A stretch of DNA of 52,106 bases from Gemmatimonadota bacterium (GTDB lineage Bacteria > Gemmatimonadota > Gemmatimonadetes > Gemmatimonadales > GWC2-71-9). Shown here piece after piece: positions 7,308 through 22,828 of the stretch; position 1 is the stretch's first letter; every line of letters starts with the position of its first letter. The notes below the pieces were generated by a model. The model was not told where the DNA came from and ran no database searches. It saw nothing but the letters and a program-made list of their open reading frames with translations. The stretch is from positions 1 through 52,106 of the forward strand of contig JBDHKN010000020.1 of the NCBI GenBank assembly GCA_039586365.1, given 5' to 3'. The position numbers were made by a program, and so were the translations under genes.

Positions 7308-10300
7308 CTAGTGCGCGGCTACTCCAGAACCTCTCTGCGGCACCTCGACCGTGCTAGTCCCTTTCTCTGCGAGAATCCGGTTCAATGCCGGCACCGTCTC
7401 TCGGATCGCCTCATCCAATCTCTGCACAGCCTCACGGAGCCTTACCCTGGTCCACTCCAACCGCTCTTCCTGGGATCGAGTTGGGCCTGTCATACTCCCT
7501 ATTACAGAGGGCCCTCCAGCAAACTTCCCGATGAGCCCGCGCCACCAGCCCCGCAGGTCGTTGTTCCGGCGCCGTAATTCGCTCGCAACATCGGCGATGG
7601 CACTGCGCAGGGAGTCAGCAATTGCCAACTCCTCAGGCAGTGAATCTCGCGGGGTTCCAGCGGGCACGTCTTCCACAGATTTTAGCGTGTCCATCGCCTC
7701 CCGTGCAACATCAGCAACTTCGTCAGCCTGAACGGAAGCGTGGTAACCTATCTGCTGGAGCTCGTAAAGAGCCATGGTGAAGTCGTGTCGCGCCCGAATC
7801 TCTGATTCCAGCATGGGCTTTAGAGGATCCCAGCGAACTTGGAGCTCGGTGGAGGAGAGGACCTGCCCCGCTGCAAGCAACTCAACACTGTATTGCCCTG
7901 GCATTACCATAGGTCCCCGCGGACCCACATCCAGACTGGGGACCTGGAATCTCGTGGTGTCATGTGGTAACGGCTGATACCGCAGATCCCAGGTGACTCG
8001 GTTGAACCCCGCCTTCCCCGGGGCGGGCATCGTTCTGACTGTCTTCCCGCCGGAGTCCCGAATATTGAGTCTGGCATCGTCGAGTTCCTGGGAGAGCCAA
8101 AAGTCCAGCATCGCTCCAAACGGTGGATTGGGTGCGATGAATATCCCCTGCCCTTGGGAGGGAACGTCCGTGTTGTACTGAAAAAGCGTCGCGTTGCGCG
8201 GAGTGAATATGTGGGCCACACTCTGCCTGACATTCGACGTCAGACCCGCTAGTGCTCTGACGTCATCCAGAATCCAGATTCCGCGACCATGCGTGCCGGC
8301 CACAAGGTCGTTCTCTCGGGCATGAATTTCGATGTCGTCCACCGGCACTCGGGGCATGTTGTTGTTGAACGGCAGCCACGTACTTCCCCGGTCGAGCGAG
8401 GCGAAGATACCGTCTTCGGCTCCCACAAACAGGAGGTCCTGGTTGTCCGGATGCTCTGTGATCACGTTTACCGTGGCGCTCTCCAGGTTCCTTGCTAGGG
8501 ACCTCCAAACCTGCCCGAAATCCTCGGTCACGTAGAGGTAAGGTCCATAGTCGTCGTCCCAGTGGCCGTCAAATGACACGTAAGCCCGGCCCGCGACGTG
8601 GTGAGATGCCGCTACGCGGCTCACGAACATGGGGTGGGGAAGGTCCGGTATGCGTCCAGACACCTCGGTCCATGTTTCGCCGCCGTCCTTACTCACCTGC
8701 ACGTTTCCGTCGTCGGTCCCAACCCAGAGGATTCCTGACCTGGCAGGGGATTCGGCAACCGTGGTAATCACTCCATAGGTGGCCGCCCCATCGTTTCTGG
8801 CAAGCGTGGTGGAGTCGGTAAGGATCCCCATGATCTCTAGACTGTCCTGTGAGACTCCCCGGCTCAGGTCTTCGGTCATTTCCCAGCTGACGCCACGATC
8901 TCGCGAAGTGAAGAGGCGGTTACCACCCAAGTAGACGGTGGCCGCACTATGTGGGGACAGCAGCATGGGCGCGGTCCAGTAGAACCGGTACTGATTCACG
9001 GTGTCAGCGGTGAACGGCTGGATGTCCTTCCGGTCCAAAGTGCGAGTGTCCAGCCGGATGATGGCACCACCCTGTGAGCTGACGTAGGCGATCCGGGAAT
9101 CCGTGGGATCCGCTTGGTTGGTCATGCCATCGCCGTAGTCCACCACGATCCAGTCACGATTCAAGATACCATGGTAACGCCGTGTGGCCGACGGACCGCG
9201 GTAGGAATTGTTGTCCTGAAGACCCCCGTAGATACGGTAGGGATCCTCCGTGTCCAGAGAGATGTCGTAGAATTGCTGGATAGGCAGGTTGGCAGTGAAC
9301 AGCCAGTTCTCGCCGCCGTCGAACGTGTAATACAAGCCTCCGTCGTTACCCAAGACCATGTGGCGAGAGTCCCTAGGATCGATCCAAAGGTCATGGTGAT
9401 CCACGTGAACGCCCGTGTTGTACTCCAACTCCATGGGCATTTCTGTGAAGGTCTTGCCTCCATCGGTGGAGCGATGTAGCTGGGTCCCCAGCACATAGAT
9501 TCTCTGGTCGTCGTTAGGGTCGATGCGGATTTGGCTATAGTACATGGCCCGAGGATTGAGACTGTTGACTTTCTCCCAGCTTTCCCCCTGATCGTCCGAT
9601 TGGTAGATCCCGCCCTCCCGAGCCTGCACGATAGCCACGACCAGGTTGGGATTGCGGGCCCAGACTGTAAGTCCAATACGGCCCTTATCTCCCTCAGGCA
9701 GCCCTTGCGACACTTGATGCCACGTCACACCGCCGTCCATGCTCCTGTAAATCCCGCTACCGGGACCACCTCCTACGAACCCCCATGCTCGGCGACGTCG
9801 TTGGTAGGCGGCAGCATACAGCACATCTGGATCGGCCGGATGACGAGCCAGATCGACGAATCCAGTGTTCTCATCAATGAAGAGCACCTTCCGCCATGTC
9901 TCACCTCCGTCGCTGGTCTTGTAGATCCCACGCTCGGCATTCGGACCCCAGAGATGTCCCAGAGCGGCCACCCACACCGTCATAGGGTCCGTCGGATGGA
10001 CCACGATCCGTCCGATGTGACGCGTCTCCTCCAGCCCCATGAAACGCCACGTCTTCCCCCCATCGCTGGAGCGGTAGACACCAGCACCCCAAGGGGACGA
10101 GTTCCTGTTGTTCGCCTCCCCGGTTCCTACCCACACCTCCAACGGGTCTGAAGGGGCCAGGGCTATGTCACCCACACTGATGTTTTCGGCTGCGTCCAGA
10201 ATCGGTTCCCAGGTAATTCCGTGGTTGCGAGACAGAAACACTCCTCCAGAGGCAGATCCAACATAGAGTTGGGATGGGGTGCCCGGGACGACTTCGATGT

Positions 10301-10454
10301 CCGTGACCCGACCTCCGGCCACTGCAGGGCCCAGCGAGCGCCACTGAAAACCCGCAAGGATGGACGGGTCTTGCCCATGGATGTGCTGAATCGCTCCCGC
10401 CATAAGCAGGGCAAGGCAGACTCCAAGTGAGTGAACGACGCTCGGACGGGACAT
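7308..10454 (-). CDS. Secreted Asp-box (BNR)/VPS10-like beta-propeller glycosyl hydrolase-like protein
   Basis: Signal peptide, WRSLGPAVAGGRV, repeated SxDGGxTW boxes, HVDHHDLWIDP, GGLQDNN, THGRGIWILDD. Confidence 0.88.
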   Translation of the reverse strand: MSRPSVVHSLGVCLALLMAGAIQHIHGQDPSILAGFQWRSLGPAVAGGRVTDIEVVPGTPSQLYVGSASGGVFLSRNHGITWEPILDAAENISVGDIALAPSDPLEVWVGTGEANNRNSSPWGAGVYRSSDGGKTWRFMGLEETRHIGRIVVHPTDPMTVWVAALGHLWGPNAERGIYKTSDGGETWRKVLFIDENTGFVDLARHPADPDVLYAAAYQRRRRAWGFVGGGPGSGIYRSMDGGVTWHQVSQGLPEGDKGRIGLTVWARNPNLVVAIVQAREGGIYQSDDQGESWEKVNSLNPRAMYYSQIRIDPNDDQRIYVLGTQLHRSTDGGKTFTEMPMELEYNTGVHVDHHDLWIDPRDSRHMVLGNDGGLYYTFDGGENWLFTANLPIQQFYDISLDTEDPYRIYGGLQDNNSYRGPSATRRYHGILNRDWIVVDYGDGMTNQADPTDSRIAYVSSQGGAIIRLDTRTLDRKDIQPFTADTVNQYRFYWTAPMLLSPHSAATVYLGGNRLFTSRDRGVSWEMTEDLSRGVSQDSLEIMGILTDSTTLARNDGAATYGVITTVAESPARSGILWVGTDDGNVQVSKDGGETWTEVSGRIPDLPHPMFVSRVAASHHVAGRAYVSFDGHWDDDYGPYLYVTEDFGQVWRSLARNLESATVNVITEHPDNQDLLFVGAEDGIFASLDRGSTWLPFNNNMPRVPVDDIEIHARENDLVAGTHGRGIWILDDVRALAGLTSNVRQSVAHIFTPRNATLFQYNTDVPSQGQGIFIAPNPPFGAMLDFWLSQELDDARLNIRDSGGKTVRTMPAPGKAGFNRVTWDLRYQPLPHDTTRFQVPSLDVGPRGPMVMPGQYSVELLAAGQVLSSTELQVRWDPLKPMLESEIRARHDFTMALYELQQIGYHASVQADEVADVAREAMDTLKSVEDVPAGTPRDSLPEELAIADSLRSAIADVASELRRRNNDLRGWWRGLIGKFAGGPSVIGSMTGPTRSQEERLEWTRVRLREAVQRLDEAIRETVPALNRILAEKGTSTVEVPQRGSGVAAH

Positions 10455-10572: not shown

Positions 10573-12063
10573 TCACCTTATCGGCACCGATATCGATATC
10601 TGGTGTGTCAGCACCGTCACGTCTTGCAGCGTGAGAGGGCCACTGGGAGCCAGCAGAACGTCGTTGGCCAACGCGAAGTCCTCAGCACGCGCTGCCGCCA
10701 CGCCATCCCAGGCCACACCGGGACGGCCCGTGCCGGTTGTAGCACGACCTACGTAGCGCAGTTCGAGATCGCCCAGTTGTACTCGCGCTCCCCAACTGGG
10801 GACCCATTCCATCCAATCCTCGTCCTGGCGCCGAAAGTCCTCCTCCACGTGGTCCCATTGGTCCAAATGGTAGTCGTACACCCGAATCCCCAGCCCAAAC
10901 TGGAGTTCTGCCGGGCCGACAGCGCGAGATACGCCCATGTTCACGAAAGCATTGGAGAAACTAAAAGCGTTCTCCACGGTCTTCTCGCCCACCTGCAGGG
11001 TGTCACCGCTCACCGTTGCCACTGGCTCCGCTGCCTCGGCCCACGTATCGCTGCTGCCGGGTTCGTACACGATATCGAGCCCGAAGGTTGTGGGGCCGGC
11101 CTGTTTGGCAATCCCGACACCGATGTCGAACGCCGTGCTGTTGCCGGGATCCCGTGGGATATTCATGATCTCGTAGTTGGGGATCTTGGGATGCGATTTC
11201 CAGTTGGCTGTGAGAGTACCACCTACTTGCCACCCGCTCGTCCCGACGGGCTGGACATACCCCAGGTGGAGGCCCCAGGTGTCCGTTTTGTCGAGATTGC
11301 TCTCCGTCCTGACTTCCTGGTCCCACTGCCAGTTCGTCGAGTCTACCAGCACCCAGTCCACGTACGTAACGTCGTGGTGCATATCGAACCGGTGGTATAG
11401 GGCGATGCCCTCGAGAGTGCGACCACCCTCGAACGTCTTAACGGCACCGATGCGCAGGTCTTCCATATCCCCCGACTGTTCGATGCCCGATGCCATGGAG
11501 TAGAGATGCTCCACGCCGTCCACGCCGTTCAGATCAGCCAGGAAAAGGCTGCCACCGACGGCAAACTCACCGGGAAGCACTGTGCCGAGCGTCAGGAAAC
11601 TGTACTTGTTGGTGGCGGACCGCGCACGCAGTGCATTGGAGGGAAGGATGTCGAGTTCACCAAACCAGACTGGGCCAAACTCCTCACCGCGTTTGAGCTG
11701 CTGCAGGGCCACCATGCCACCGCCGAACACTTTGGGGGAGCCGAAGAGCGCACCCGCCGACAGCGAACCCGCGCTGCCAGCGCGATTGCTCACGCTGTAG
11801 TACATGGGAGCAGCGAACACATGAGAATCGGCGATCCTTGCTCCCTTTGCCGGGTTCACGAAGGGATCCAGAACCGAGTCGTCCACCGCGATGCTGATGG
11901 CACCCATGCCAAGATTGCGTGACGGGAACAGCATGAACTGATCGCCCGCTGCGACCGGGACGGTCTTGAGCGAGATGAGCTGCGCCAGTGCGGGCGTGGG
12001 AAACGCGGTGATCGTCGCCACGAGACCAATGCACAGTCTTGCACGTGACAGAGTATGCTTCAT
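10573..12063 (-). CDS. Putative outer-membrane beta-barrel protein
   Basis: AGGAGG RBS, signal peptide ending PALA-Q, alternating amphipathic strands, C-terminal HQISISVPIR. Confidence 0.65.
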   Translation of the reverse strand: MKHTLSRARLCIGLVATITAFPTPALAQLISLKTVPVAAGDQFMLFPSRNLGMGAISIAVDDSVLDPFVNPAKGARIADSHVFAAPMYYSVSNRAGSAGSLSAGALFGSPKVFGGGMVALQQLKRGEEFGPVWFGELDILPSNALRARSATNKYSFLTLGTVLPGEFAVGGSLFLADLNGVDGVEHLYSMASGIEQSGDMEDLRIGAVKTFEGGRTLEGIALYHRFDMHHDVTYVDWVLVDSTNWQWDQEVRTESNLDKTDTWGLHLGYVQPVGTSGWQVGGTLTANWKSHPKIPNYEIMNIPRDPGNSTAFDIGVGIAKQAGPTTFGLDIVYEPGSSDTWAEAAEPVATVSGDTLQVGEKTVENAFSFSNAFVNMGVSRAVGPAELQFGLGIRVYDYHLDQWDHVEEDFRRQDEDWMEWVPSWGARVQLGDLELRYVGRATTGTGRPGVAWDGVAAARAEDFALANDVLLAPSGPLTLQDVTVLTHQISISVPIR

Positions 12064-12097: not shown

Positions 12098-12988
12098 TCA
12101 ACCGCCGCGCAGCGGGAGAACTACCGTATGAGTCGTTTCCTGCCCCACAGCTATCGCGACACCCGGTGTGGTTGTGGCCCCCAGGACCGCCGACCCGGGT
12201 GCTGTCACCTGAACTGTGTACGTTCCTGCCAAGAGGAAGCCCACTGAGTAACGACCGTCTGGGTCAGTGTGTCCGGTTGCGGTGATCGACCAACTGGAGG
12301 GAGGTTCGGTGGAGTTGCCTCGCAGCACGGTTATCACCGCGTTCTCAACGGGCTCCTGGAACTGGTCGCCGTCGATGTCACCAAGGACCATCCCACTGAG
12401 AAATCCCGTTACCGACTTGTCCACGGCTCTCACGAAAGGAACGAACAGGAAATCGAAGAGAGGATTCTCCAAACCGAAGACGAAGCTCTGACCGACATCG
12501 AAGTCTACCACGATCTGGCAACCTGCTTCTGTTACCGCCAGTGGCTCCTCGACTAGCGCGAAGACCGGGGTACTCCCCGTATCAGGCCACCGCACCCTGG
12601 CCTCACCGCCGCCCGCGAATACCACGCGAGAGGAATCTGTATTGATCGTGAGCCGCACAGCTTCGTACTGTCCCACCAGCAGTCTTCCCTCACCCGCCAA
12701 CTCCGTGACTCCCTGCTGCAGTGAGATGAGATCGAACCGGCGCCCGGGGGTGGCAATGTTCAACCACTCTTGCTGTCCCAAGACCGTGTTCACCTCTGTG
12801 GACGCAGCGATCTCCACGACGTACACTTCCACTCGATCGACCATCTCAAACGGCAAGGGTGCGTCGGTTAGGTACACACTCGTGAGCCCGACTGCTGCTG
12901 ACGGCCATAGGCTGTCGTCCTGATAGCACGCAAGTCCTATGGAGACGGCAGTGAACAGGATTACAGCACCCGATGCGGAACGCTTCAT
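12098..12988 (-). CDS. DUF4382-like lipoprotein with C-terminal carboxypeptidase-regulatory-like beta-sandwich
   Basis: Lipobox-like IGLAC; VYLTDAP, FDLISLQQG, IVVDFDVGQSF; C-terminal TDPDGRYSVGFLLAGTYTVQVTAPG. Confidence 0.75.
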   Translation of the reverse strand: MKRSASGAVILFTAVSIGLACYQDDSLWPSAAVGLTSVYLTDAPLPFEMVDRVEVYVVEIAASTEVNTVLGQQEWLNIATPGRRFDLISLQQGVTELAGEGRLLVGQYEAVRLTINTDSSRVVFAGGGEARVRWPDTGSTPVFALVEEPLAVTEAGCQIVVDFDVGQSFVFGLENPLFDFLFVPFVRAVDKSVTGFLSGMVLGDIDGDQFQEPVENAVITVLRGNSTEPPSSWSITATGHTDPDGRYSVGFLLAGTYTVQVTAPGSAVLGATTTPGVAIAVGQETTHTVVLPLRGG

Positions 12989-13025: not shown

Positions 13026-13055
13026 TGGATACCCAACCAGTGCCTACCGAGTCAC
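13026..13055 (-). promoter_or_regulatory. Candidate ECF-sigma promoter, leftward copy
   Basis: Minus strand GTGACTCGG-taggcactggt-TGGGTATCCA; same motif and spacing as 13081-13110. Confidence 0.65.
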
Positions 13056-13080
13056 ACCGATGCGTGGCACCCTGGGTCAC

Positions 13081-13110
13081 GTGACCCGGAGGAAGCTCCA
13101 TGGGTATCTA
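13081..13110 (+). promoter_or_regulatory. Candidate ECF-sigma autoregulatory promoter, rightward copy
   Basis: GTGACCCGG-aggaagctcca-TGGGTATCTA immediately before in-frame GTG 13115; overlaps palindrome GGGTCACGTGACCC (13074-13087). Confidence 0.65.
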
Positions 13111-13660
13111 TGATGTGAAGGGGGAAAGTGACGCAGTGCTGGTTGAGCGGGTGCTGGCGGGCGAAACAGATGCCTATGCTGGGCTTGTCGCCCGCTACCG
13201 AGATCGCCTTGGGCGATACGCCGTGCGGATGCTTGGCAACGTAGCGGATGCCGAGGAGGCTCTGCAGGACGCTTTCGTACGGGGATACCGGTCTCTGGCA
13301 CGATGTACCGATCCGGACCGGTTCGGAGCCTGGTTGTTCGGCATTCTGGTCAACCGTTGCCGGACACTCGGTAAGCAGCGGGCTCGTCGTCACAACTTAG
13401 TGGTGCACAACGAGCCAGCTGTTGCGAAAGCAGCCGTGGCACATTCCGAAGATCGCGACGCGACGCGGGAGGCCATCGAGTGGGCCGTGGCCCAGATCTC
13501 GGCGACGAACCGGGAGGCGTTTCTGTTGAAGTACGTGGAAGAACTGAGTTACGATGAGATGACCGTGATCACAGGTGCGAGCGTATCCGCACTCAAAATG
13601 CGGGTAGCCAGAGCCCGGGAAGATCTACGTCGTCTGTTGGCGGAGGTGGAAAGTGACTGA
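13100..13660 (+). CDS. ECF-type RNA polymerase sigma factor
   Basis: Region 2 DAEEALQDAFVRGY...FGAWLFGILVNRCR; region 4 REAFLLKYVEELSYDEM...ALKMRVARAR; true start may be GTG 13115. Confidence 0.93.
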   Translation: MGIYDVKGESDAVLVERVLAGETDAYAGLVARYRDRLGRYAVRMLGNVADAEEALQDAFVRGYRSLARCTDPDRFGAWLFGILVNRCRTLGKQRARRHNLVVHNEPAVAKAAVAHSEDRDATREAIEWAVAQISATNREAFLLKYVEELSYDEMTVITGASVSALKMRVARAREDLRRLLAEVESD

Positions 13661-14216
13661 GGGAAACGGCAGGCTGGAGCGGGCGATCGATGCCCTCAAG
13701 GAACCGGTGCAACTCGGGCACACATTCGATCAGCGTGTCATGGCCGAAATCGAATCGGGCCCAGAACCGCGTGCCTGGGCATACCGCTTCTGGGCAATTC
13801 TCGACTGGCTGAAACGCGGTCGCCCTGTTAGCGTGAGTCCTCTGGGTGGCCTCGCCCTCACAGCAGGAATCGCTCTCGTCGCTCTGCTAGGGCGATCGAT
13901 GCTCGAATCTGAGGGTCAGAGCACGCCCGTCGCGGCCGCTGCTTATGGTTCCGTAGTGCAGTTCGTAATCGTCGAACCTGCGGCAACTGCGGTTTCGTTG
14001 GTAGGGGACTTCAACGATTGGAGCGCAGCAGCCAATCCAATGCAGCGCATGGCAGGCAACGGTGTCTGGTCAGTGACCGTACCGCTTACACCCGGCCGCT
14101 ACCGCTATGCGTTTCTGGTAAACGGCAGCATATGGCTTAGTGATCCATCTGCACCACCTACGCTGGACGACGAATTCGGACGACCGGGGTCGGTCGTCAC
14201 TATTGGAGAGTTATGA
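13653..14216 (+). CDS. Putative anti-sigma factor: single TM helix plus glycogen-binding (CBM48/AMPK-beta-like) domain
   Basis: Overlaps sigma stop; N-terminal FDQRVMAEI, TM GGLALTAGIALVALLG, then VSLVGDFNDW...GVWSVTVPLTPGRYRYAFLVNG.WLSDP. Confidence 0.8.
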   Translation: MTEGNGRLERAIDALKEPVQLGHTFDQRVMAEIESGPEPRAWAYRFWAILDWLKRGRPVSVSPLGGLALTAGIALVALLGRSMLESEGQSTPVAAAAYGSVVQFVIVEPAATAVSLVGDFNDWSAAANPMQRMAGNGVWSVTVPLTPGRYRYAFLVNGSIWLSDPSAPPTLDDEFGRPGSVVTIGEL

Positions 14217-14872
14217 GACCTGGAGCTAGTCAACTCGTCTCGGCACTCGCCCTTGTCGCTGGCATCAACGCGGCAGCCGGAACGGCCTCTGCTCAGGAGC
14301 CGCGCCTGCGGGATCGGCTACCAGCACCCACCCGCATTGCGATCGACGCCATCCTGGATTCCGCTCACGCAGAGGGACTTCCCACAGAACCGCTAGTAGA
14401 CCGCGCACTCGAAGGTGCGAGCAAGGGTGCCGCTCCAGATCGGATTATGGCAGCTGTGCAGCGGCTTTGGGGAGAACTCCGGACTGCCCGCATTTCTTTG
14501 GGTCTCGGATCCTCGGCACCCGAGATCGTGGCTGGCGCCAGCGCGCTGCGAGCGGGCGCTGATCCTGACGACCTCACGCGTTTGCGAGAGCTTCGTACGC
14601 GACAATCCCTCACTGTGGCCAGTGCCACCCTGGCGGATCTGGTGGCGGTGGGAGTGCCGGTGGACACTGCTGTCGCAGCCGTAATTGCTCTTGCCGAGGG
14701 TGCTGAGGACGCGGATTATCTGGCGTTCAGGAGGAATGTAGAGCGTGACATCGCGCTGGGTGCCTCCCCGGTCAGCGCCCTCGGTGTTCGGTTGGGCGCG
14801 GCAGCTGCAGAAGCGCTCAGCAACATCGATCAAGCCAGCTCGCCGGGCCCTAGGCGCCCGCGGAAACCGTAG
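14213..14872 (+). CDS. Secreted Ala-rich helical hypothetical protein
   Basis: ATGA overlap; signal peptide ending ASA-Q; GLPTEPLVDRALEGASKGA. Confidence 0.75.
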   Translation: MRPGASQLVSALALVAGINAAAGTASAQEPRLRDRLPAPTRIAIDAILDSAHAEGLPTEPLVDRALEGASKGAAPDRIMAAVQRLWGELRTARISLGLGSSAPEIVAGASALRAGADPDDLTRLRELRTRQSLTVASATLADLVAVGVPVDTAVAAVIALAEGAEDADYLAFRRNVERDIALGASPVSALGVRLGAAAAEALSNIDQASSPGPRRPRKP

Positions 14873-14886
14873 TTGTTGCCCAGTCG

Positions 14887-16035
14887 GTGACCCACTGCCG
14901 CTCTAGCGCCGCCGTAGTGGCAACTGTCTGGTACTGCCTGAGTGGTTCCACACTCGGCGCACAAGTGATGGGTTCTGTGGATATCGGTACATCTTGGGTC
15001 GATTACGAGGGCTTTCTGGCTTCCGGAGCAGCCTTCATGACCCCAACCCTCCGCTACGAGGGGCCCGGTGTTTCCCTCGGTGCGAGCGGAAGCTACGTGC
15101 TTTTCGAGAGTGGCAACCGTATCCTACAGGGCCTGACGGCCGGCGGTTGGCGAACCCGCTTGGGCCGCCGAGTGCTCGGCGAACTGTCTGGATCGGCCGG
15201 CCTCAACGTGTACGAGGACTACCCCGGCTACGGACACCTCATGAGCCGAGTCCGGTTTCATTACGTGGGGCTACGTAGCGGAGCCTGGTTTGGCGCCGCT
15301 ACTGGACAGTCCTACACGGGATCGACGTCGGCCACGCCATACGAGGTCGAAGTTGGCGGTTGGACTGTGAGCAGTGGCCTCGCAGTTGGCGGCACCATCA
15401 CGCGTACTTGGATCGCTGACGCAGATTACCTCGACATCTTGGGAACGGCCCGCATCCGTGACAGATTGTTCGAGATCGACGGATCGCTGGGCTTTCGCGC
15501 ATGGGGCGAAGGCGGCGGCGAAGGAGTCTATGGTGAGTTGCATGTCCAGGTCCCATTGGTCAAGCGACTCACCGCAATGGTTGCGGGCGGGCGCTATCCG
15601 TCGGATCCAGTTCGCGGCGTGATAACCGCGAACTACGTGAGCGCAGGTCTCCGGATACACGCGCTCACAGCTTCCACCACACGTACCACCACTCTCCTCG
15701 GTGATTCGTTTGGAGCGTCGGCTCGTTCAGAGCCACCGCGCACCGGCCAGGCACGCCTAACAGTTGGCTCTTCGGCTCACAACTACCACACCATTCGTGT
15801 GGAAGCACCTGGCGCGGAATACGTTGAGCTAAGTGGTGACTTCACAGATTGGCAACCGATTCCACTGATGCGCACGGAGGGGGGACACTGGGAACTAGCG
15901 ATCCATATTGAACCTGGCGTCCACCGCGTCAACGTCCGATTGAATACTACAAGGTGGATCGTACCACAGGGTGTGAGAGCAGAGGAGGATGAGTTTGGCG
16001 GAAGGGTTGGGATTCTGGTGGTACCAGAGCGGTGA
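14887..16035 (+). CDS. Putative outer-membrane beta-barrel protein with C-terminal glycogen-binding (CBM48-like) domain
   Basis: Signal peptide, Gly/aromatic strands, Thr/Ser linker, then APGAEYVELSGDFTDWQP...WELAIHIEPGVHRVNVR...DEFGG. Confidence 0.75.
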   Translation: MTHCRSSAAVVATVWYCLSGSTLGAQVMGSVDIGTSWVDYEGFLASGAAFMTPTLRYEGPGVSLGASGSYVLFESGNRILQGLTAGGWRTRLGRRVLGELSGSAGLNVYEDYPGYGHLMSRVRFHYVGLRSGAWFGAATGQSYTGSTSATPYEVEVGGWTVSSGLAVGGTITRTWIADADYLDILGTARIRDRLFEIDGSLGFRAWGEGGGEGVYGELHVQVPLVKRLTAMVAGGRYPSDPVRGVITANYVSAGLRIHALTASTTRTTTLLGDSFGASARSEPPRTGQARLTVGSSAHNYHTIRVEAPGAEYVELSGDFTDWQPIPLMRTEGGHWELAIHIEPGVHRVNVRLNTTRWIVPQGVRAEEDEFGGRVGILVVPER

Positions 16036-17222: not shown

Positions 17223-18590
17223 GTGGATTTCACCGAACTCTCGTACCCTGACGCACCTCGCATCATGATCACGCCGCCGGGACCGGAATCACGCAAGTAC
17301 CTCGACTATCAGTCAGCCACGGAGAGTTCGGCCGTCTCATACCCCCGAGGGATGCCGATGGCACTGTGTCGGGGAAAGGGGGCGACCGTCGAGGATGTGG
17401 ATGGGAATCGCTATATCGATTTCTTCGGTGGCGCGGGTGTAATCAATGTCGGACACGCCAATCCAATGGTCCTGGAGGCCGCGCGGCGTCAGTTGCAGGA
17501 TGTGACACATACGTTGGACATCCCGAGTCCGGCACGGAAGTCGATGGTGGAAGCACTGGTGGACATCTTGCCCAGCGAGATCAGCAAGATCTTCTTCGGA
17601 GGACCTACCGGATCTGACGCTGTCGAGGCCGCGGTCAAACTCGCCAAGTACAATTCGAGACGCTACCCGATGATTGCCTTCGAGGGCGCTTACCACGGGA
17701 TGACTAGCGGGGCGCTGTCACTGTGCAGCGGTTCTGCGTTCAAGGGAGACTTCCTTCCACTGCTACCCGAGGTCCACTTCGTCCCCTACTCATACTGCTA
17801 CCGTTGTACCTTCAACCGCGACCCGGAAAGCTGCGATCTCGAGTGCGGCAAGTTCCTCGAGCACGTAGTTGAGGATTCTCACTCCGGGGTTGGAGAACCG
17901 GCAGCGATACTAGTAGAAGCTATTCAAGGGGAAGGCGGCTCGATTGTACCCGACGAACGATTCATGCCGACAGTTCGCGCGGTCTGCGACAAATATGGCA
18001 TTCTGCTGATTGCAGACGAAATCCAGGCGGGGTTTTGCCGGACTGGTAGGATGTTCTCCTTTGAACACACTGGAGTGGTTCCGGACATTATGACCATGAG
18101 TAAGGCTCTCGGTGGCGTCGGATTCCCTATCGCAGCAGTAGCGTACCGGGAACGATTGAATACGTGGCCGCCCGGTAAACACATTGGCACGTTTCGGGGA
18201 AACATGATCGCTTATGCCGGTGGCGCGGCCGGAATCAGGTTCATGCTGGAGAACAACCTAGCGGACCATGTGAGGAATCTCGGCCAGCGCATGCTCGATC
18301 TGCTGAAGCTGATAGAGCAAGACTCCGAGATCGTCGGTGAGGTCAGGGGAAAGGGACTCATGCTGGGAGTGGAATTCGTGAAGGACAGAGCCACCAAAGA
18401 ACCCGCACCTGACCTCGCGGCCAAGGTAAGGACGCTGTGCCATCAGAGAGGGGTGCTCATAGAGATCGGTGGTCACTACTTCAACGTAGCGAGATTCCTG
18501 CCTCCGCTCGTAATCACCGAGGAGCTCGCCAGGAAGGGCATAGAGGTGTTTGCCGACTCAGTGCGAGAATTGGAGAACAGCAGAAGATAG
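17223..18590 (+). CDS. Class III PLP aminotransferase, diaminobutyrate--2-oxoglutarate transaminase (Dat/EctB)-like
   Basis: ESSAVSYPR, GPTGSDAVEAAVK, YHGMT, EAIQGEGG, DEIQAGFCRTG, MSKALGG, PGKHIGTFRGN. Confidence 0.85.
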   Translation: MDFTELSYPDAPRIMITPPGPESRKYLDYQSATESSAVSYPRGMPMALCRGKGATVEDVDGNRYIDFFGGAGVINVGHANPMVLEAARRQLQDVTHTLDIPSPARKSMVEALVDILPSEISKIFFGGPTGSDAVEAAVKLAKYNSRRYPMIAFEGAYHGMTSGALSLCSGSAFKGDFLPLLPEVHFVPYSYCYRCTFNRDPESCDLECGKFLEHVVEDSHSGVGEPAAILVEAIQGEGGSIVPDERFMPTVRAVCDKYGILLIADEIQAGFCRTGRMFSFEHTGVVPDIMTMSKALGGVGFPIAAVAYRERLNTWPPGKHIGTFRGNMIAYAGGAAGIRFMLENNLADHVRNLGQRMLDLLKLIEQDSEIVGEVRGKGLMLGVEFVKDRATKEPAPDLAAKVRTLCHQRGVLIEIGGHYFNVARFLPPLVITEELARKGIEVFADSVRELENSRR

Positions 18591-18650
18591 GAAGGGGACC
18601 CTGCCCTTCCCTCACCTTGGGAGGACGTGGCTGGTCCGCCTCCCTCGCGT

Positions 18651-19736
18651 TCAATCCAGTACAGCGACGGACTTTACCCTGGCGAACACTGCAGTTCCTG
18701 CAGTGAGGCCGAGTCGCGAACATGATTTGCGGGTGATCCTGGCTAACAGCACTGGCTCTTGCCCTTTCTGATGGCCGAGCCGAATGAGGCAATCAGATGG
18801 TGAGAGATCGACGATCTGCAGCACCGTTAGGCACAGCTCGTTGAGTATGCTACTTCCGTGTTGAGCCGCGAGACCTAGACTCACGTCGCGTGCATAAACT
18901 TGGACTCGTACCCGGGTCCCGGGCGCCTCGGGACGCTGGTGTATGGTAAGATCACCTAACGGCGTCCTCACTTCGGTGAGATGGAAGTGGTGGTCGTGAT
19001 CGTGGACAGTACCGTCCAGGACCACGCCTGCCTCCTCGTCCCACCAACGCGCGAAGTCCAACTGCCCGAGGACCTTCGACACGGGACCCGCGGTGTTTAC
19101 TCGCCCGCCTTCAATCCAAACTAGATGATCAGAGAGACGCGCAACCTCGGTAAGGGAATGACTCACATAAACGACCGGGAGCTCGAGCTGCGTAAGAATC
19201 CGCTCCAGGTACTTCAATACGTCGCGCCGCGCCGGTTCATCCAAGGCAGATACAGGCTCGTCCATGAGCAGTAGTCTGGGACACGCCAACAGTGCACGCG
19301 CCACAGCTACCCGTTGGCGCTCCCCTCCTGAGAGATTGGGCACCGACCGCTCGAGAAGCGGCCCGAGCGCAAGCCATTGCACGACAGCTTCCCAGCCAAA
19401 CACACGCTGCCCCTCCGCGACTCGCCGGTGGGCGTATGACAGATTCTCTCTGACGGATAGGTGCGGGAACAGATCCGCGCCCTGCGACACATAGCCGACA
19501 CCACGCCGGAACGGGGGCACGAACACCCCGGCCGCCTCGTCCTGCCACACATCGCCATTCAGCCGAACCAAACCGGATTCCGCCCGGTGAAGGCCCGCAA
19601 GACAACGCAGCACAGTGGTCTTTCCGCTCCCAGAGGCACCGAACAGGCCGGTCACGCCGCTGCTACGAGCGGTGAAGTCGAAGTCGAGCAAGAAGTCGCC
19701 CAGTCGCGCGCGGAAACGAGCTTCGAGTTCGGTCAC
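18651..19736 (-). CDS. modC: Molybdate ABC transporter ATPase
   Basis: GASGSGKTT, LSGGERQRVA, LMDEP, C-terminal TOBE-like ARITRKS..LGL..G..VFARVKSV. Confidence 0.93.
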   Translation of the reverse strand: MTELEARFRARLGDFLLDFDFTARSSGVTGLFGASGSGKTTVLRCLAGLHRAESGLVRLNGDVWQDEAAGVFVPPFRRGVGYVSQGADLFPHLSVRENLSYAHRRVAEGQRVFGWEAVVQWLALGPLLERSVPNLSGGERQRVAVARALLACPRLLLMDEPVSALDEPARRDVLKYLERILTQLELPVVYVSHSLTEVARLSDHLVWIEGGRVNTAGPVSKVLGQLDFARWWDEEAGVVLDGTVHDHDHHFHLTEVRTPLGDLTIHQRPEAPGTRVRVQVYARDVSLGLAAQHGSSILNELCLTVLQIVDLSPSDCLIRLGHQKGQEPVLLARITRKSCSRLGLTAGTAVFARVKSVAVLD

Positions 19737-20407
19737 AGGCGGGGAGTCTCGAACCGCCGGTTTAGCGCGTAAACCGTCAAAAGGATAGAAAAGCTGAACA
19801 GCAGCATGACGGCCGCAAGGATATGGGCCTTGCCATACTCCAGTGCTTCAACGTGGTTGTACAGCGCTATGGAGAGCACTTCGGTCCGTCCCGGGATATT
19901 GCCTCCGATCATCAGCACCACTCCGAATTCACCCACCGTGTGCGCGAACCCCAGCGTAGCCGCGGTGAGGAACCCGGGTCTGGCGAGCGGCAACACCACG
20001 GTAACGAATCGATCGAGGGGGCCCGCTCGCAGTGTAGCCGCTGCATCGAGGAGGCGATCGGGCACCGCCCTGAAGGCATTGTGAAGAGGCTGAACAACAA
20101 ACGGTAGAGAGTAGAGTACCGAACCCACCACGAGGCCAGTGAAGGAAAACACGAGCCGTGGGCCACCGAGCGACTCCCAGAACCGCCCCACTGTCCCGGC
20201 CGGCCCTAGCAGGATCAGGAGATAGAAGCCAAGCACCGTCGGAGGCAGCACAAGTGGCATTGCTACGACCGCTTCCGCAAACGGACGGAATTTCGACTTC
20301 GTGCGCGCAAGCCACCAAGCCACCGGAGTCCCGCCAGCTATAAGCACGATGGTAGCAACGCCCGCGAGCTGGGCCGTCAGGATCAATACTTGCCAGTCTA
20401 GTGACAT
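19733..20407 (-). CDS. modB: Molybdate ABC transporter permease
   Basis: PLVLPPTVLGFYLL, SLPFVVQP, FAHTVGEFGVVLMIGGNIPG. Confidence 0.95.
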   Translation of the reverse strand: MSLDWQVLILTAQLAGVATIVLIAGGTPVAWWLARTKSKFRPFAEAVVAMPLVLPPTVLGFYLLILLGPAGTVGRFWESLGGPRLVFSFTGLVVGSVLYSLPFVVQPLHNAFRAVPDRLLDAAATLRAGPLDRFVTVVLPLARPGFLTAATLGFAHTVGEFGVVLMIGGNIPGRTEVLSIALYNHVEALEYGKAHILAAVMLLFSFSILLTVYALNRRFETPRL

Positions 20408-20414
20408 GGGACGA

Positions 20415-21209
20415 CTATGGCAGCCTATACCCTGTTGTAGCTATTACCTGCCTCCCCTCATCGCTCTGAAGAAACCTGAGAAATGCTTCAGCACCGACAT
20501 TACCCTCACCGTGCCGCAGCAGTACAGCATCCTGACGGATCGAGGTGTAGAGGCTATCCGGCACGATCCAATAACTGTGCCGGTCCCGATCAAGGACTTG
20601 CGAAAGAGCAACGAATCCAACTTCTGCGGCTCCGGACTCGACGAATTGAAAGGCCTGTCCCACGTTCTCTCCCCGAACGATCAGCGGCTCGAGGCGGTTC
20701 CATAGGCTCCATCGCTCGATTACCTCTCGTGCTGCGGAGCCGTAGGGTGCTGTACGTGGGTTGGCAATTGCGAGGTGTCGGTACGGGCGCGTTCGCAATT
20801 CGCTGTCACCCGCACGCACCGAATCCCACTGCGGTGCATACAACGCAAGTCGTCCCAGGGCATATGTGAATCGCGTCCCGCGAACGGCAAGACCCTCAGC
20901 CTCGAGTCGCCGCGGTCTATCGACATCGGCAGCCAAGAACACGTCGTAAGGTGCACCATTAGCTACTTGTGCGTACAAGTAGCCAGTGGCACCTACACTA
21001 GTCTCAACTACGATGCCCGTTTCCAGCTCGAACTCTCGAACCAGTCCCTGATGGGTTGCGGCGAAGTTGGCCGCCACAGCAACCCTGACCAGCGATCGTC
21101 CCCCCTCCCCGCCATCGCCCCTGTTGCAGCTCCACCCGACGACCCCCATCACGAGCACTACCGCCAACCGCTGACCAAGCAGCATCCACACCTCGGCGAT
21201 ATGACCCAT
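20415..21209 (-). CDS. modA: Molybdate ABC transporter substrate-binding protein
   Basis: VAVAANF, GATG.LYAQ..NGAPYDVFLAAD, IANP.TAPYG, GENVGQA; start 21209 or 21185. Confidence 0.92.
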   Translation of the reverse strand: MGHIAEVWMLLGQRLAVVLVMGVVGWSCNRGDGGEGGRSLVRVAVAANFAATHQGLVREFELETGIVVETSVGATGYLYAQVANGAPYDVFLAADVDRPRRLEAEGLAVRGTRFTYALGRLALYAPQWDSVRAGDSELRTRPYRHLAIANPRTAPYGSAAREVIERWSLWNRLEPLIVRGENVGQAFQFVESGAAEVGFVALSQVLDRDRHSYWIVPDSLYTSIRQDAVLLRHGEGNVGAEAFLRFLQSDEGRQVIATTGYRLP

Positions 21210-21403
21210 TCGTGCATCCCCACATGAGTCGGTGGAGGGGAAACATAACTGCCTGGCCGGAAGCCTGTAGCGGAAGCGGTAACGGAAACCAGTTCCACGA
21301 AGCCGGTGGACGGCCCCCGTAGTCTGAGCAATAATTGAAGGGTTGACTGACTCGACAACGGCCACTGCAGCAGGTAGGTCCGCTAGACTGGGAGACAATC
21401 GTC

Positions 21404-22795
21404 ATGGGCACAAGATCATGGCTTATCCGCGGGGGGACTGTGGTGGTCGGGCAAACAGTGGGCCAACGGGATGTTCTCATCCAGGGACAGCGTATAGCGG
21501 CGGTCGGCCACCTGGATGACTTGAAAGCCGACAGCGTGGTAGACGCTGACGGGCTCTTGGTCCTACCCGGTGCCGTGGATACTCACATTCACCTGAACGA
21601 TATCTTCATGAACACGGTCAGTGTGCACGACTACTACACCGGCACCCTTGCTGCCGCCTATGGTGGCGTCACGAGCATAGTCGACTTCTCCAATCAGGTT
21701 CCAGGCGGGTCTCTGATGAAGACCTTGGAAGACAAACAGGAGGAGTCCGCTGGAAAGGCGCTGATCGATTGGGGCGTGCATCCCGTGATCACGCGACCAG
21801 ACACCGAGACTCTAGATCAGATTCCGGCGGTAGTGCAAGCGGGCGCCCCCACGATCAAGTGCTACATGACGTATCGGCAGGACGGGTTGCTCGTCGACGA
21901 CGCAGACTTGAAGCGGATCGCTGTGCGGCTGACTGAGGCAGGGGGCATGCTCATGCTCCATGCCGAGGACAACGAGATGATCGAGGCTAGCATCCCCCGC
22001 TTCCTGGCCGACGGGAAGACCTCTTCCATTTACCATGCCAGGAGCAAGCCGCCGGAAGTCGAGGTCGCCGCGATTCGCCGTATCGTGGATATGGCGCGCG
22101 AGACCGGCGCGAGGTTTTTCATTGTTCACCTGGCGAGTGACGAAGGGCTCGATCTCGTGACGCAGGCGCGGGAAGCAGGACTGGACATCACTGCTGAGAC
22201 TTGCACTCACTACCTCAGTTTCACTGACGAGATGTTGGAGCGAGACGATGGGATCAAGTGGATCTGCTCACCACCTCTCAGGAACAGAACCATCCAGGAG
22301 AGGCTCTGGAATGGTGTCAGTGACGGTCGGATTGCAATGGTCACGTCAGACGACGCTGCCTACTCGTGGGAGGCAAAGATGTACGGCGCTGACCGGTTCG
22401 ACAGATGCCCCAACGGGATTCCTGGAGTTGAACCTCGCCTCAGCATCCTGTACTCGGAGGGAGTAGCAAAGGGTAGGATAACACTCCCGCGGTTCGTGGA
22501 GATCGTGTCAACCACGCCCGCAACACTGTTTGGAATGGCGCCGCGAAAGGGAAGCATAGCCCCTGGTGCCGATGCAGACATCGTACTCTTGGATCCAAAC
22601 GAGCGGTGGACAATGAGCCACGCAACCCTCCATATGGCTGCCGACTGGTGTGCTTGGGACGGGATCGAAATCACAGGCAGGGTAGTCAGAGTCTACTCGA
22701 GGGGTGAACTCGTTATCGACGGTGGGGAGTGCCTGGCGGAACCGGGGAGGGGACGTTACATCCACTGCCGACTACCACCTCGCAACTCGAACTGA
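21404..22795 (+). CDS. Dihydropyrimidinase/D-hydantoinase family amidohydrolase
   Basis: PGAVDTHIH, GGVTSIVDF, IKCYMTY, LHAED, VHLAS, ETCTHYL, CSPPLR, PNGIPGVE, KGSIAPGADADIV. Confidence 0.9.
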   Translation: MGTRSWLIRGGTVVVGQTVGQRDVLIQGQRIAAVGHLDDLKADSVVDADGLLVLPGAVDTHIHLNDIFMNTVSVHDYYTGTLAAAYGGVTSIVDFSNQVPGGSLMKTLEDKQEESAGKALIDWGVHPVITRPDTETLDQIPAVVQAGAPTIKCYMTYRQDGLLVDDADLKRIAVRLTEAGGMLMLHAEDNEMIEASIPRFLADGKTSSIYHARSKPPEVEVAAIRRIVDMARETGARFFIVHLASDEGLDLVTQAREAGLDITAETCTHYLSFTDEMLERDDGIKWICSPPLRNRTIQERLWNGVSDGRIAMVTSDDAAYSWEAKMYGADRFDRCPNGIPGVEPRLSILYSEGVAKGRITLPRFVEIVSTTPATLFGMAPRKGSIAPGADADIVLLDPNERWTMSHATLHMAADWCAWDGIEITGRVVRVYSRGELVIDGGECLAEPGRGRYIHCRLPPRNSN

Positions 22796-22828
22796 TCGTG
22801 CAAGGCAGCTTGCTTGGCTAGCAAATCC

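Follow-up and report, generated by a model that had tools for sequence, protein, structure and literature searches.

An ECF sigma factor operon of Gemmatimonadota with two CBM48-fold domains is likely to run an envelope-defence response instead of glucan sensing

The stretch of DNA analyzed here (52,106 nucleotides of a Gemmatimonadota genome, hereafter the window) contains an ECF sigma factor operon in which two of the four products carry a glycogen-binding-type CBM48 domain. An initial annotation made from the sequence proposed that the system senses alpha-glucans across the envelope. Which signal does such an operon respond to, and which genes does it control? The features concerned, with the evidence for each in brackets, are:

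10573..12063, minus strand: secreted protein of 496 amino acids without a known family, probably sharing a transcript with the DUF4382 gene (neighbourhood)
12098..12988, minus strand: DUF4382 and carboxypeptidase-regulatory-like lipoprotein, predicted regulon member (domains, promoter)
13029..13055, minus strand: divergent second copy of the promoter below, facing the DUF4382 lipoprotein operon (motif match)
13081..13107, plus strand: predicted autoregulatory promoter GTGAC-N16-GGGTAT, ECF278s1-type (recurrence upstream of sigma genes)
13115..13660, plus strand: ECF sigma factor, probably 181 amino acids (Pfam, NCBIfam; start spacing in homologues)
13653..14216, plus strand: putative anti-sigma factor with a cytoplasmic N-terminus of about 60 amino acids, one TM helix and a periplasmic CBM48-fold domain (Pfam, topology, alignments)
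14213..14872, plus strand: secreted all-helical protein of an unnamed family (structure model, homologue search, complex model)
14887..16035, plus strand: predicted 14-stranded outer-membrane barrel with flexible linker and periplasmic CBM48-fold domain (fold model, Pfam)

Operon, promoter and ECF group

The four open reading frames and the overlaps at 13653-13660 and 14213-14216 are all present in the sequence, and the barrel gene starts after a 14-nt gap downstream of the helical gene. The helical gene was found in 193 of 301 Gemmatimonadota genomes, and the gene order, on which the initial annotation had made its reading depend, is conserved across relatives. The four-gene operon is genuine and widespread in Gemmatimonadota.

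The sigma protein exhibited Pfam scores above the cut-off for both Sigma70_r2 and r4_2. Its open frame begins at ATG 13100, which falls within the conserved promoter (-35 at 13081-13085, -10 at 13102-13107). The in-frame GTG 13115 is located 7 nt past the -10 element, a distance which recurs in many homologues. Thus, translation probably starts at GTG 13115, giving a protein of 181 amino acids and a leaderless mRNA. Upstream of sigma genes GTGAC-N17-GGT was found in 24 of 41 regions, and the reverse-strand site is present in many homologous loci. The GTGAC-N18-GTAT spacing of the window equals that of GTGAC-N18-GTATA in Desulfovibrio and Desulfobacteraceae loci. A generic sigma-70 promoter scan revealed nothing relevant.

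The description of the in silico group ECF278s1 (Casas-Pastor et al. 2021, PMC7826278) gives GTGAC (-35) and GTATA (-10) as promoter elements and, in position +1, an anti-sigma candidate that has one TM helix and bears an AMPK glycogen-recognition domain in the periplasm; glycogen sensing is its guess at the function. It covers only Desulfovibrio, Syntrophobacter and Chloracidobacterium, and its supplement text contains no characterised member. The operon studied here likewise has a single-TM anti-sigma candidate in position +1, a periplasmic AMPK1_CBM domain and a GTGAC/GTAT promoter, with a -10 element, GTAT(C), that differs from GTATA in the last base. In contrast, the ECF278s1 description mentions neither a helical partner nor a barrel or regulon. 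By sequence, then, the sigma/CBM48 anti-sigma core and its promoter match ECF278s1. The initial annotation had counted it against itself if the cluster belonged to an already characterised ECF group with a different signal; a described group was indeed found, but in its description this group is uncharacterised and carries the same glycogen guess. In a quick sigma tree the Gemmatimonadota clade (support 97) and the Desulfobacterota-type clade (98) were both located inside a 44-row clade with a support of 93 and weak internal branching. Literature searches for an ECF anti-sigma factor with a glycogen recognition site, for a Gemmatimonadota sigma factor with CBM48 and for the group name ECF278 found no paper.

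CBM48-fold domains and the helical protein

An HMM check, as proposed in the initial annotation, placed the putative anti-sigma factor above the cut-offs of both CBM_48 (46.6 bits) and AMPK1_CBM (34.2 bits, cut-off 26.8). A TM segment at about residues 61-79 was present in 57 of 57 homologues, and in all 57 K/R was richer on its N side. These two features therefore place the N-terminus inside and the CBM domain, which starts about 20 residues past the TM segment, in the periplasm. The layout of a single-pass protein in the anti-sigma position next to an ECF sigma factor was thereby borne out, and the topology is C-out where a cytoplasmic CBM domain would have spoken against the initial annotation.

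For the barrel protein the CBM_48 match of 22.5 bits is just at the cut-off of 22.4. Its model consists of a 14-strand barrel (residues 26-260), a disordered linker (263-280) and the C-terminal CBM48 domain, which, because of the even strand count, would lie in the periplasm and not at the cell surface. Pfam matches and topology thus agree with the earlier claim of CBM48-fold domains at both membranes, and they place both domains in the periplasm. The best fold match of the barrel was the cyclodextrin channel CymA (Z 19.0, rmsd 3.5, 235 aligned residues), with which OmpG tied (Z 18.5), and the barrel carries conserved lumen-type Arg/His/Glu residues. Beside some operons the barrel gene is absent; at four such loci (L169, L173, L180, L185) a small secreted CBM48 protein adjoins the sigma gene. 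The idea of a Slam-like translocon was dropped: the barrel fold searches listed no Slam chain, and regulon lipoproteins were not clearly enriched in a common motif following the cysteine (4 of 9 versus 40 of 164).

FecI/FecR/FecA is a cell-surface signalling system in which the FecA signalling domain touches FecR. The parallel drawn with it in the initial annotation proved to be loose. Sigma factor, anti-sigma factor and outer-membrane barrel do share one operon, but the barrel is optional and modelled as a plug-less 14-strand protein, whereas FecA is a 22-strand TonB-dependent transducer, and the FecR domain was absent from 57 of 57 anti-sigma family members in Pfam. No TonB-receptor Pfam domain was found in the operon, and the earlier statement that it encodes neither such a receptor nor a catalytic glucanase was confirmed by Pfam. 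Of 31 loci outside Gemmatimonadota, 28 have the helical gene next to the genes for the sigma factor and the CBM anti-sigma factor. Judged by gene content, the barrel is dispensable and the helical protein nearly constant.

Both CBM domains resemble the AMPK beta glycogen-binding domain in their fold and in the positions equivalent to W100, W133 and L146, and the anti-sigma CBM keeps the aromatic cradle (W123, W161, F175). Unlike in AMPK, Lys126 and mostly Thr148 are lost. In the alignment to 1z0n, K126 corresponds to A153 of the anti-sigma protein and T148 to R177; the equivalents in the barrel CBM are N349 and G372. Among homologues found by similarity, which give the unbiased count, a lysine at the K126 position occurred in 0 of 57 and 0 of 100. 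It was also missing from all 186 aligned domains, 107 of them from anti-sigma proteins and 79 from barrel proteins, a set in which similarity-found sequences are mixed with loci from a pattern that requires Ala/Ser at this position. The T148 equivalent is rare, that of W133 is replaced in about a quarter of the 107 anti-sigma domains, and N179 is often kept. Exchange of Lys126/Thr148 for Gly/Ala weakened glycogen binding by AMPK beta (PMC2642990). Since both tryptophans and the L146 equivalent are kept, and K126 is replaced in some plant and algal starch-binding domains (PMC4625611), residual sugar binding is possible.

The helical protein has a signal-peptide-like N-terminus (ASA|Q28) and an all-helical model with a pLDDT of 92.8. 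Neither Pfam nor NCBIfam contained a matching family, and a PDB sequence search returned none under E 0.01. An Atlas search matched only unnamed Gemmatimonadota clusters, and the best fold match was a designed repeat (Z 9.5), below the level meaningful for helical proteins. The family comprises 3184 representatives at E<=0.001 and is strongly conserved at E67 (42 of 42), G68 (42 of 42) and K71 (41 of 42). Desulfobacterota-type, Myxococcota-type and Thiobacillus loci retain this EGxxK motif; Bipolaricaulota-type loci have often lost E67. Apparent anti-sigma-helical fusions (L148, L177) were rejected as likely frameshift artefacts, L148 keeping an internal signal peptide and L177 being fragmented.

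A model of the complex between anti-sigma CBM and helical protein reached an ipSAE of 0.89, compared with 0.02 for the best of three controls; the mark applied to this score was reached by 116 of 157 solved pairs and by 2 of 215 mismatched pairs. Three runs shared at least 98% of contacts, and the partner had a pLDDT of 89. The lowest-error contacts joined helical E67, G68 and K71 to the invariant CBM residues D119, D122, W123, W161 and F175. The E67-G68-x-x-K71 helix end is thus predicted to sit in the sugar cradle, on W123/W161/F175, and we are fairly confident from the model that the anti-sigma CBM binds the helical protein. The barrel CBM retains those cradle residues that make contact in the model of the complex (mean conservation 0.89 versus 0.61 for the whole domain). 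Covariation between CBM and helical positions was tabulated as raw counts.

These data bear on two alternatives. Contact between the two CBM domains across the periplasm, reporting membrane spacing with the helical protein as chaperone or bystander, is permitted by the linker lengths on both sides. It is hardly credible given that the second CBM is optional, the helical gene nearly constant and the conserved CBM face predicted to be occupied. Alternatively, the helical protein might cap the anti-sigma factor, and periplasmic or barrel-imported alpha-glucan might compete it off the tryptophan cradle, much as RseB is displaced by LPS, and so report an envelope leak or the lysis of neighbours. 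W123, W161, F175 and, in many cases, N179 are kept, and the protein interface in the model coincides exactly with the sugar site. Glycogen sensing was proposed for ECF278s1 (PMC7826278), and the CymA-like barrel fits a glucan cue and counts against a CBM that binds protein and not glucan. The missing K126 equivalent, the rare T148 equivalent and the frequent replacement of W133 all argue against such a cue, and the conservation is sufficiently explained by a protein interface. We consider it distinctly unlikely.

Predicted regulon

In the genome itself GTGAC-N16-GGGTAT sites preceded a lipoprotein signal in 14 of 20 cases, compared with 5 of 114 for other spacers. In relatives this held for 25 of 71 promoter sites and, with the strict motif, for 19 of 37 (9 of 30 in more distant genomes), all lipoprotein counts being those of a crude regular-expression filter with visible false positives. 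The motif also precedes all five genes of the genome for serpins, which are protease inhibitors, three with spacer 16 and two with spacer 17, and the inhibitory hinge is intact in all five. Among 29 Pfam-selected serpin loci, 12 scored at least 16; random windows scored above 12 in 2 of 400 cases. Since the other 17 loci scored under 16, and serpins were found in 29 of 61 relatives but the helical gene in 47 of the same 61, protease defence is, on this sequence evidence, not the whole regulon. Desulfobacterota-type genomes contain few promoter sites (16 in 5 genomes), mostly local, and no serpin was found under any of these 16.

In many relatives this promoter likewise faces genes for DUF4382-like lipoproteins, and homologues of the 496-amino-acid protein, for which a PDB search gave no match, stand directly under it in other genomes. 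Small regulon lipoproteins carry DSRCP-x4/6-C or CACTEE(Y/F)R loops and matched no Pfam, NCBIfam, PDB or named Atlas entry; these loops may resemble canonical protease-inhibitor loops. The promoter evidence makes it very probable that the regulon consists of envelope lipoproteins and serpins. This predicted regulon, defined by the promoter motif before serpin and lipoprotein genes, is new here, and a literature search found no paper joining serpin, lipoprotein, bacterial protease inhibitor and ECF sigma factor.

No glucan gene was found among the predicted members, which also counts against the glucan-displaced cap. It speaks, too, against a nutrient version, in which the operon senses external alpha-glucan in the manner of FecI/FecR/FecA and switches on genes for taking it up or breaking it down. 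The presence of a CBM48 domain at each membrane and the CymA-like fold invite this reading, but the barrel CBM is predicted to be periplasmic and not exposed, and the promoter fronts lipoproteins and serpins. The GH13 cluster of the genome (on C114) scored no higher than 12.2, which is the random-window level, and four relatives at least 90% complete (G009, G014, G048, G059) possess the helical gene without a GH13 match. The nutrient version is therefore very improbable. In Clostridium thermocellum, SigI/RsgI pairs are polysaccharide sensors in which a membrane anti-sigma factor with a carbohydrate-binding-type module is released by regulated intramembrane proteolysis (PMC10328401). RsgI, according to this source, carries a periplasmic domain that cleaves itself, and it controls enzymes that degrade polysaccharides; here no Pfam match to that domain was found, no room exists for it between TM segment and CBM, and no glycosidase occurs in the predicted regulon. 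With Lys126 and mostly Thr148 lost, the cradle predicted to be filled by protein and the GH13 cluster without an above-chance promoter, the alpha-glucan reading of the initial annotation is weakly supported.

Proposed mechanism

We tentatively propose, at just short of an even chance, a self-activating ECF system in which the anti-sigma CBM docks the helical protein and not glucan, and in which loss of this cap leads to production of serpins and envelope lipoproteins. The anti-sigma factor would hold the sigma factor, and the helical cap would shield the anti-sigma ectodomain from site-1 cleavage in the style of RseB on RseA. That the cap is inhibitory seems somewhat probable. The barrel CBM, with the same cradle, would be a second receptor that sets a threshold or pulls the cap off; competition for the cap is a reading we moderately favour. 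Proteases entering the periplasm or outer-membrane damage may remove the cap, our judgement on proteolytic or envelope damage as the cue being evenly balanced. An RseP-type cleavage would then free the sigma factor, and induced serpins together with fresh cap and anti-sigma factor would end the response. An M50 (RseP-family) protease is encoded in the genome. The small secreted CBM48 proteins at four loci without the barrel, and the helical-barrel-CBM fusions described below, also count in favour of this proposal.

MucB is the parallel of RseB. RseB of E. coli and the proteolysis of its anti-sigma factor are described in PMC8058218. The present system resembles RpoE-RseA-RseB in its sigma factor, single-pass anti-sigma factor, co-encoded secreted partner predicted on the anti-sigma ectodomain, predicted envelope output and encoded RseP-family protease. 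It differs in that the proposed cap belongs to an unrelated helical family, the predicted dock is a CBM48 fold, a candidate second receptor is located in the outer membrane, and serpins and small lipoproteins take the place of chaperones or Bam/Lpt genes among the predicted targets. No RseA-family anti-sigma factor or MucB/RseB-family partner was matched in the operon by Pfam or NCBIfam.

The helical protein could also be an activator, parked on the barrel CBM and handed over to the anti-sigma CBM, where it would trigger cleavage much as the FecA signalling domain acts on FecR; barrel damage, a cut linker or a ligand in the pore would set off the hand-over. Helical-barrel-CBM fusions (5 among the best 150 helical-family representatives, all singleton clusters without genomic context) place the helical domain N-terminal to the barrel, where a periplasmic domain could touch the anti-sigma factor in a FecA-like manner, and the lumen-type residues and disordered linker of the barrel would fit as well. 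However, many operons have a helical gene without an adjacent second CBM (L037, L272, L279, L283, L163, L171, L199). They lack a sink, so an activator would leave them switched on, and we regard the activator as unlikely. In the fusions themselves a cap would stay bound to the CBM of the same chain, an arrangement which suits an activator better.

A broader version of the inhibitory cap is doubtful: a multi-phylum family would have turned a glycogen-binding fold into a protein dock, with two competing docks and a periplasmic protease alarm that calls up lipid-anchored inhibitors. The CBM, having lost its own lysine, would take up the lysine-bearing helix of a secreted partner, and the outputs would be serpins and several unnamed small lipoproteins whose variable loops are bounded by disulphides.

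It is likely that the system runs an envelope-defence response instead of glucan sensing. This would revise the sole functional guess printed for this sigma type in the ECF278s1 description, glycogen sensing, and advises caution, as the label "glycogen-binding domain" on a CBM48 protein that is secreted or sits in the membrane may point to a module that binds protein. The circuit, four small genes in all, could be reconstructed in a laboratory strain. The analysis provides a sharp promoter motif for a common and little-studied phylum, together with a candidate regulon in which several new lipoprotein families gain a testable role in envelope defence. The rare bacterial serpins are tied to a defined regulator which, if the assignment is true, would be the first dedicated bacterial-serpin regulator in the literature searched.

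The operon, its promoter and its relatives

The four open reading frames (window 13100-16035, + strand), both overlaps and both CBM48 motifs described in the initial annotation were confirmed by checking the sequence. Pfam searches revealed Sigma70_r2 and r4_2 in gene 1 (ECF sigma factor), CBM_48 and AMPK1_CBM in gene 2 (putative anti-sigma factor) and CBM_48 with a score at the cut-off in gene 4, in agreement with the assignment made from the motifs; gene 3, encoding the secreted helical protein, matched no Pfam family. Homologues bearing names belonged to Gemmatimonadales/Gemmatimonadota. A TM segment with an excess of K/R on its N side was found in 57/57 homologues of gene 2. Thus, its CBM is placed in the periplasm, as previously suggested. 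The AlphaFold2 model of gene 3 exhibited an all-helical fold (pLDDT 92.8). In that of gene 4 (pLDDT 87), a disordered linker connects a 14-strand barrel to a CBM at the C-terminus. The top fold matches of the barrel, CymA (Z 19.0) and OmpG (Z 18.5), were tied at 7-9% identity, and Foldseek agreed.

Two predicted promoter copies of the GTGAC-N16 type precede the operon:

Window 13081-13107, + strand: promoter toward sigma
Window 13055-13029, - strand: divergent promoter copy

GTGAC-N17-GGT was present in 24/41 sigma upstream regions, frequently with a divergent second copy (44 sites counted over both strands). The ATG at 13100 lies inside the promoter; the GTG at 13115 sits 7 nt beyond the -10 element, as in many homologues. 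The palindrome GGGTCACGTGACCC (window 13071-13087) overlaps the -35 element and was not conserved among the homologous upstream regions examined.

The window also encodes M14, S9 and C69 peptidases. No link to the operon was seen in the window for these or for the following genes:

Window 7308-10454 and 42484-45696, - strand: two large Vps10/BNR-repeat secreted proteins
Window 18651-21398: modABC
Window 17223-25653: aminotransferase/amidohydrolase/decarboxylase/symporter cluster

The same genome contains a paralogue of the operon:

Contig C26 (L031:4842-7940), - strand: second four-gene operon, 47% identical

This operon has a promoter variant of its own (GTTACC-N15/16-GGTCT) and a DUF4382 lipoprotein gene in divergent orientation. 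It also encodes a Gln-rich helical protein, and a barrel-like gene lies upstream. The regulon predicted for it seems confined to its own neighbourhood.

A pattern scan of GTDB genomes yielded at least 120 stretches, and the flanks of 80 were read. Among the matches listed, loci with a sigma factor and a CBM48 anti-sigma factor came from Desulfovibrio, Desulfobacteraceae, Myxococcota, Thiobacillus, Thermotogota and Bipolaricaulota. The promoter of the in-silico subgroup ECF278s1 is GTGAC/GTATA, and GTGAC-N18-GTATA lies ahead of sigma in the Desulfobacterota-type loci. A quick tree of 69 sigma factors grouped the Gemmatimonadota sequences (support 97) and those of Desulfobacterota type (support 98) as two sets in one 44-row clade (support 93) with no resolved order inside. 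The shared promoter and this clade therefore suggest that the core of sigma factor and CBM48 anti-sigma factor works like ECF278s1 and is probably its sister group. The ECF group, which the initial annotation had left to be assigned, is thus ECF278s1-like in promoter and anti-sigma factor, and its placement goes as far as the common clade. The core is already in print as an in-silico group (PMC7826278); a literature search found no description of the helical partner, the barrel or the regulon.

The helical protein as constant partner

The helical gene was detected in 47/61 relatives and 193/301 genomes of the phylum, one contributed by the unpublished G185. All four genes were present in 53/66 non-duplicate loci, selected via the helical gene, in line with a conserved gene order. 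The other loci comprised 10 without a barrel-CBM match, two truncated by contig ends and one misclassified by the script. Among the 10, L035 and L048 contain a diverged barrel gene, and L037 (G039), L272, L279 and L283 carry a different gene at the barrel position. In four barrel-less loci (L169, L173, L180, L185) a small secreted CBM48 adjoins sigma. In six Gemmatimonadaceae-type loci (L034, L138, L148, L165, L195, L198) the barrel-CBM gene lies upstream of sigma with its own promoter copy. L209:1586-3654 and L213:1436-3473 pair a barrel-CBM48 with a helical gene, no sigma being inside the 2.5 kb fetched; they are possibly stand-alone decoy modules.

Iterated profiles found the helical gene in 28/31 non-Gemmatimonadota loci (missing in L179, L194 and L204; hhalign probability 86 in L171). 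Loci of Desulfobacterota type, of Myxococcota type and from Thiobacillus retain the EGxxK motif (E67-G68-x-x-K71), which Bipolaricaulota-type loci have often lost. Eight Bipolaricaulota/Thermotogota-labelled loci (L141, L147, L150, L159, L160, L170, L175, L193) encode sigma, CBM48 anti-sigma factor and a diverged helical protein, with a secreted repeat protein of 550-570 aa replacing the barrel; CBM hairpin and EGxxK are both altered in this variant. The helical family has 3184 representatives, and the best 150 include five helical-barrel-CBM fusions, every one a singleton cluster, in which no internal signal peptide was seen.

According to PMC2642990, W100, K126, W133, L146 and T148 of AMPK beta1 touch the sugar, and exchange of each for Gly or Ala markedly lowers glycogen binding. 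In the 1z0n alignment the anti-sigma CBM has A153 at K126, F175 at L146 and R177 at T148. Lysine at the K126 column occurred in 0/57 anti-sigma and 0/100 barrel homologues, and in 0/107 anti-sigma and 0/79 barrel domains from operon loci, a set partly picked for Ala/Ser there. As a caveat, this position also varies in algal starch-binding domains (PMC4625611). A glucan may, with lower probability, compete with the helical protein at the sugar-site cradle.

Binding of the helical protein itself to the anti-sigma CBM is supported by a complex model of residues 27-205 and 96-187, respectively, which scored 0.89 versus 0.02 for the best control; that mark was reached by 116/157 solved and 2/215 mismatched pairs. 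Runs shared at least 98% of contacts (partner pLDDT 89). Since neither fold nor PDB sequence searches turned up a solved structure related to the helical protein, the model is unlikely to reproduce a similar complex already known. The modelled contacts place E67, G68 and K71 on D119, W123, R151, W161 and F175 of the CBM. The lysine of the helical protein would thus fill the cradle where the CBM has lost its own. Because R151 is present in only 54/107 anti-sigma domains, we claim no fixed E67-R151 salt bridge. Cradle residues of the barrel CBM showed a mean conservation of 0.89 versus 0.61 for the domain. Taken together, the constancy of the helical gene, the fusions, the small CBM48 proteins and the kept barrel cradle suggest that the helical protein is a single ligand shared by two receptors, the CBMs of anti-sigma factor and barrel.

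The predicted regulon

GTGAC-N16-[GAT][GA]GTAT occurs at 20 sites in the genome. A lipoprotein-type signal, as recognized by a crude in-house regex, followed within 80 nt at 14/20 sites with spacer 16 versus 5/114 with spacers 11-15 and 17-22, three of these five having spacer 17. Pfam assigned the 17 downstream ORFs to three serpins, one DUF6174 protein and one S41 peptidase, besides weak OMP and peptidase matches; 10/17 had no match above E 0.03. The S41 peptidase gene is probably not the first after its site. All five serpin genes of the genome are preceded by the motif (three at spacer 16, two at 17) and encode an inhibitory-type hinge. One of them, split over two frames (G000:C9:105545-106730), reflects a frameshift or an assembly error.

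In five close relatives 25 of the 71 sites read (92 in total) passed the lipoprotein filter, as did 19/37 of the strict GGGTAT form; their regulon sites included serpins in four genomes and DUF6174, DUF4382, BP74_N and RCC1-repeat proteins. For five genomes at a greater distance, the figure was 9 of 30 sites read (32 found). In an independent test, serpin loci chosen by Pfam scored at least 16 on the promoter matrix in 12/29 cases, including L304 from the training set and kin that are not independent, versus 2/400 random windows above 12. The serpin-bearing genomes G011, G018 and G045, which have no helical-gene match, scored -2.5, 8.2 and -9.5, and a GH13 cluster on contig C114 at most 12.2. 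A serpin gene neighbours the operon, no more than a few kb away, in G038:C1, G046:C9, G054:C19 and G055:C30; the one in G046 is the divergent gene beneath the second promoter.

Serpins occur in only 29/61 relatives, and the 16 promoter matches in five Desulfobacterota-type genomes, mostly local and including TPR proteins, contained no serpin, which argues against a general protease-defence role.

A lipoprotein family under the promoter (L063:3119-3550, L056:2830-3249, L059:5863-6345 and seven homologues) gave no database match. DSRCP-x4/6-C is invariant and the loop between the cysteines variable; we take this loop to resemble the canonical reactive loop of protease inhibitors. Another lipoprotein (L061:1850-2272, L092:1053-1469) carries CACTEE(Y/F)R directly after the lipid anchor, presumably recalling a Kazal-type reactive site, and L062:5760-6041 looks like a broken copy of it.

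A proposed mechanism

Most likely, the helical protein would cap and protect the putative anti-sigma factor in an RseB-like manner, by analogy with the RseB and proteolysis cascade acting on an anti-sigma factor (PMC8058218), and the outer-membrane CBM of the barrel would compete for this cap. The helical protein might instead be an activator, a reading favoured by the helical-barrel-CBM fusions, but in barrel-less operons an activator without a sink would always be on, which argues for the inhibitory cap. Loss of the inhibitory cap would lead to RseP-type proteolysis (an M50 protease is present in the genome) and the freed sigma factor would induce itself, the serpins and other lipoproteins.
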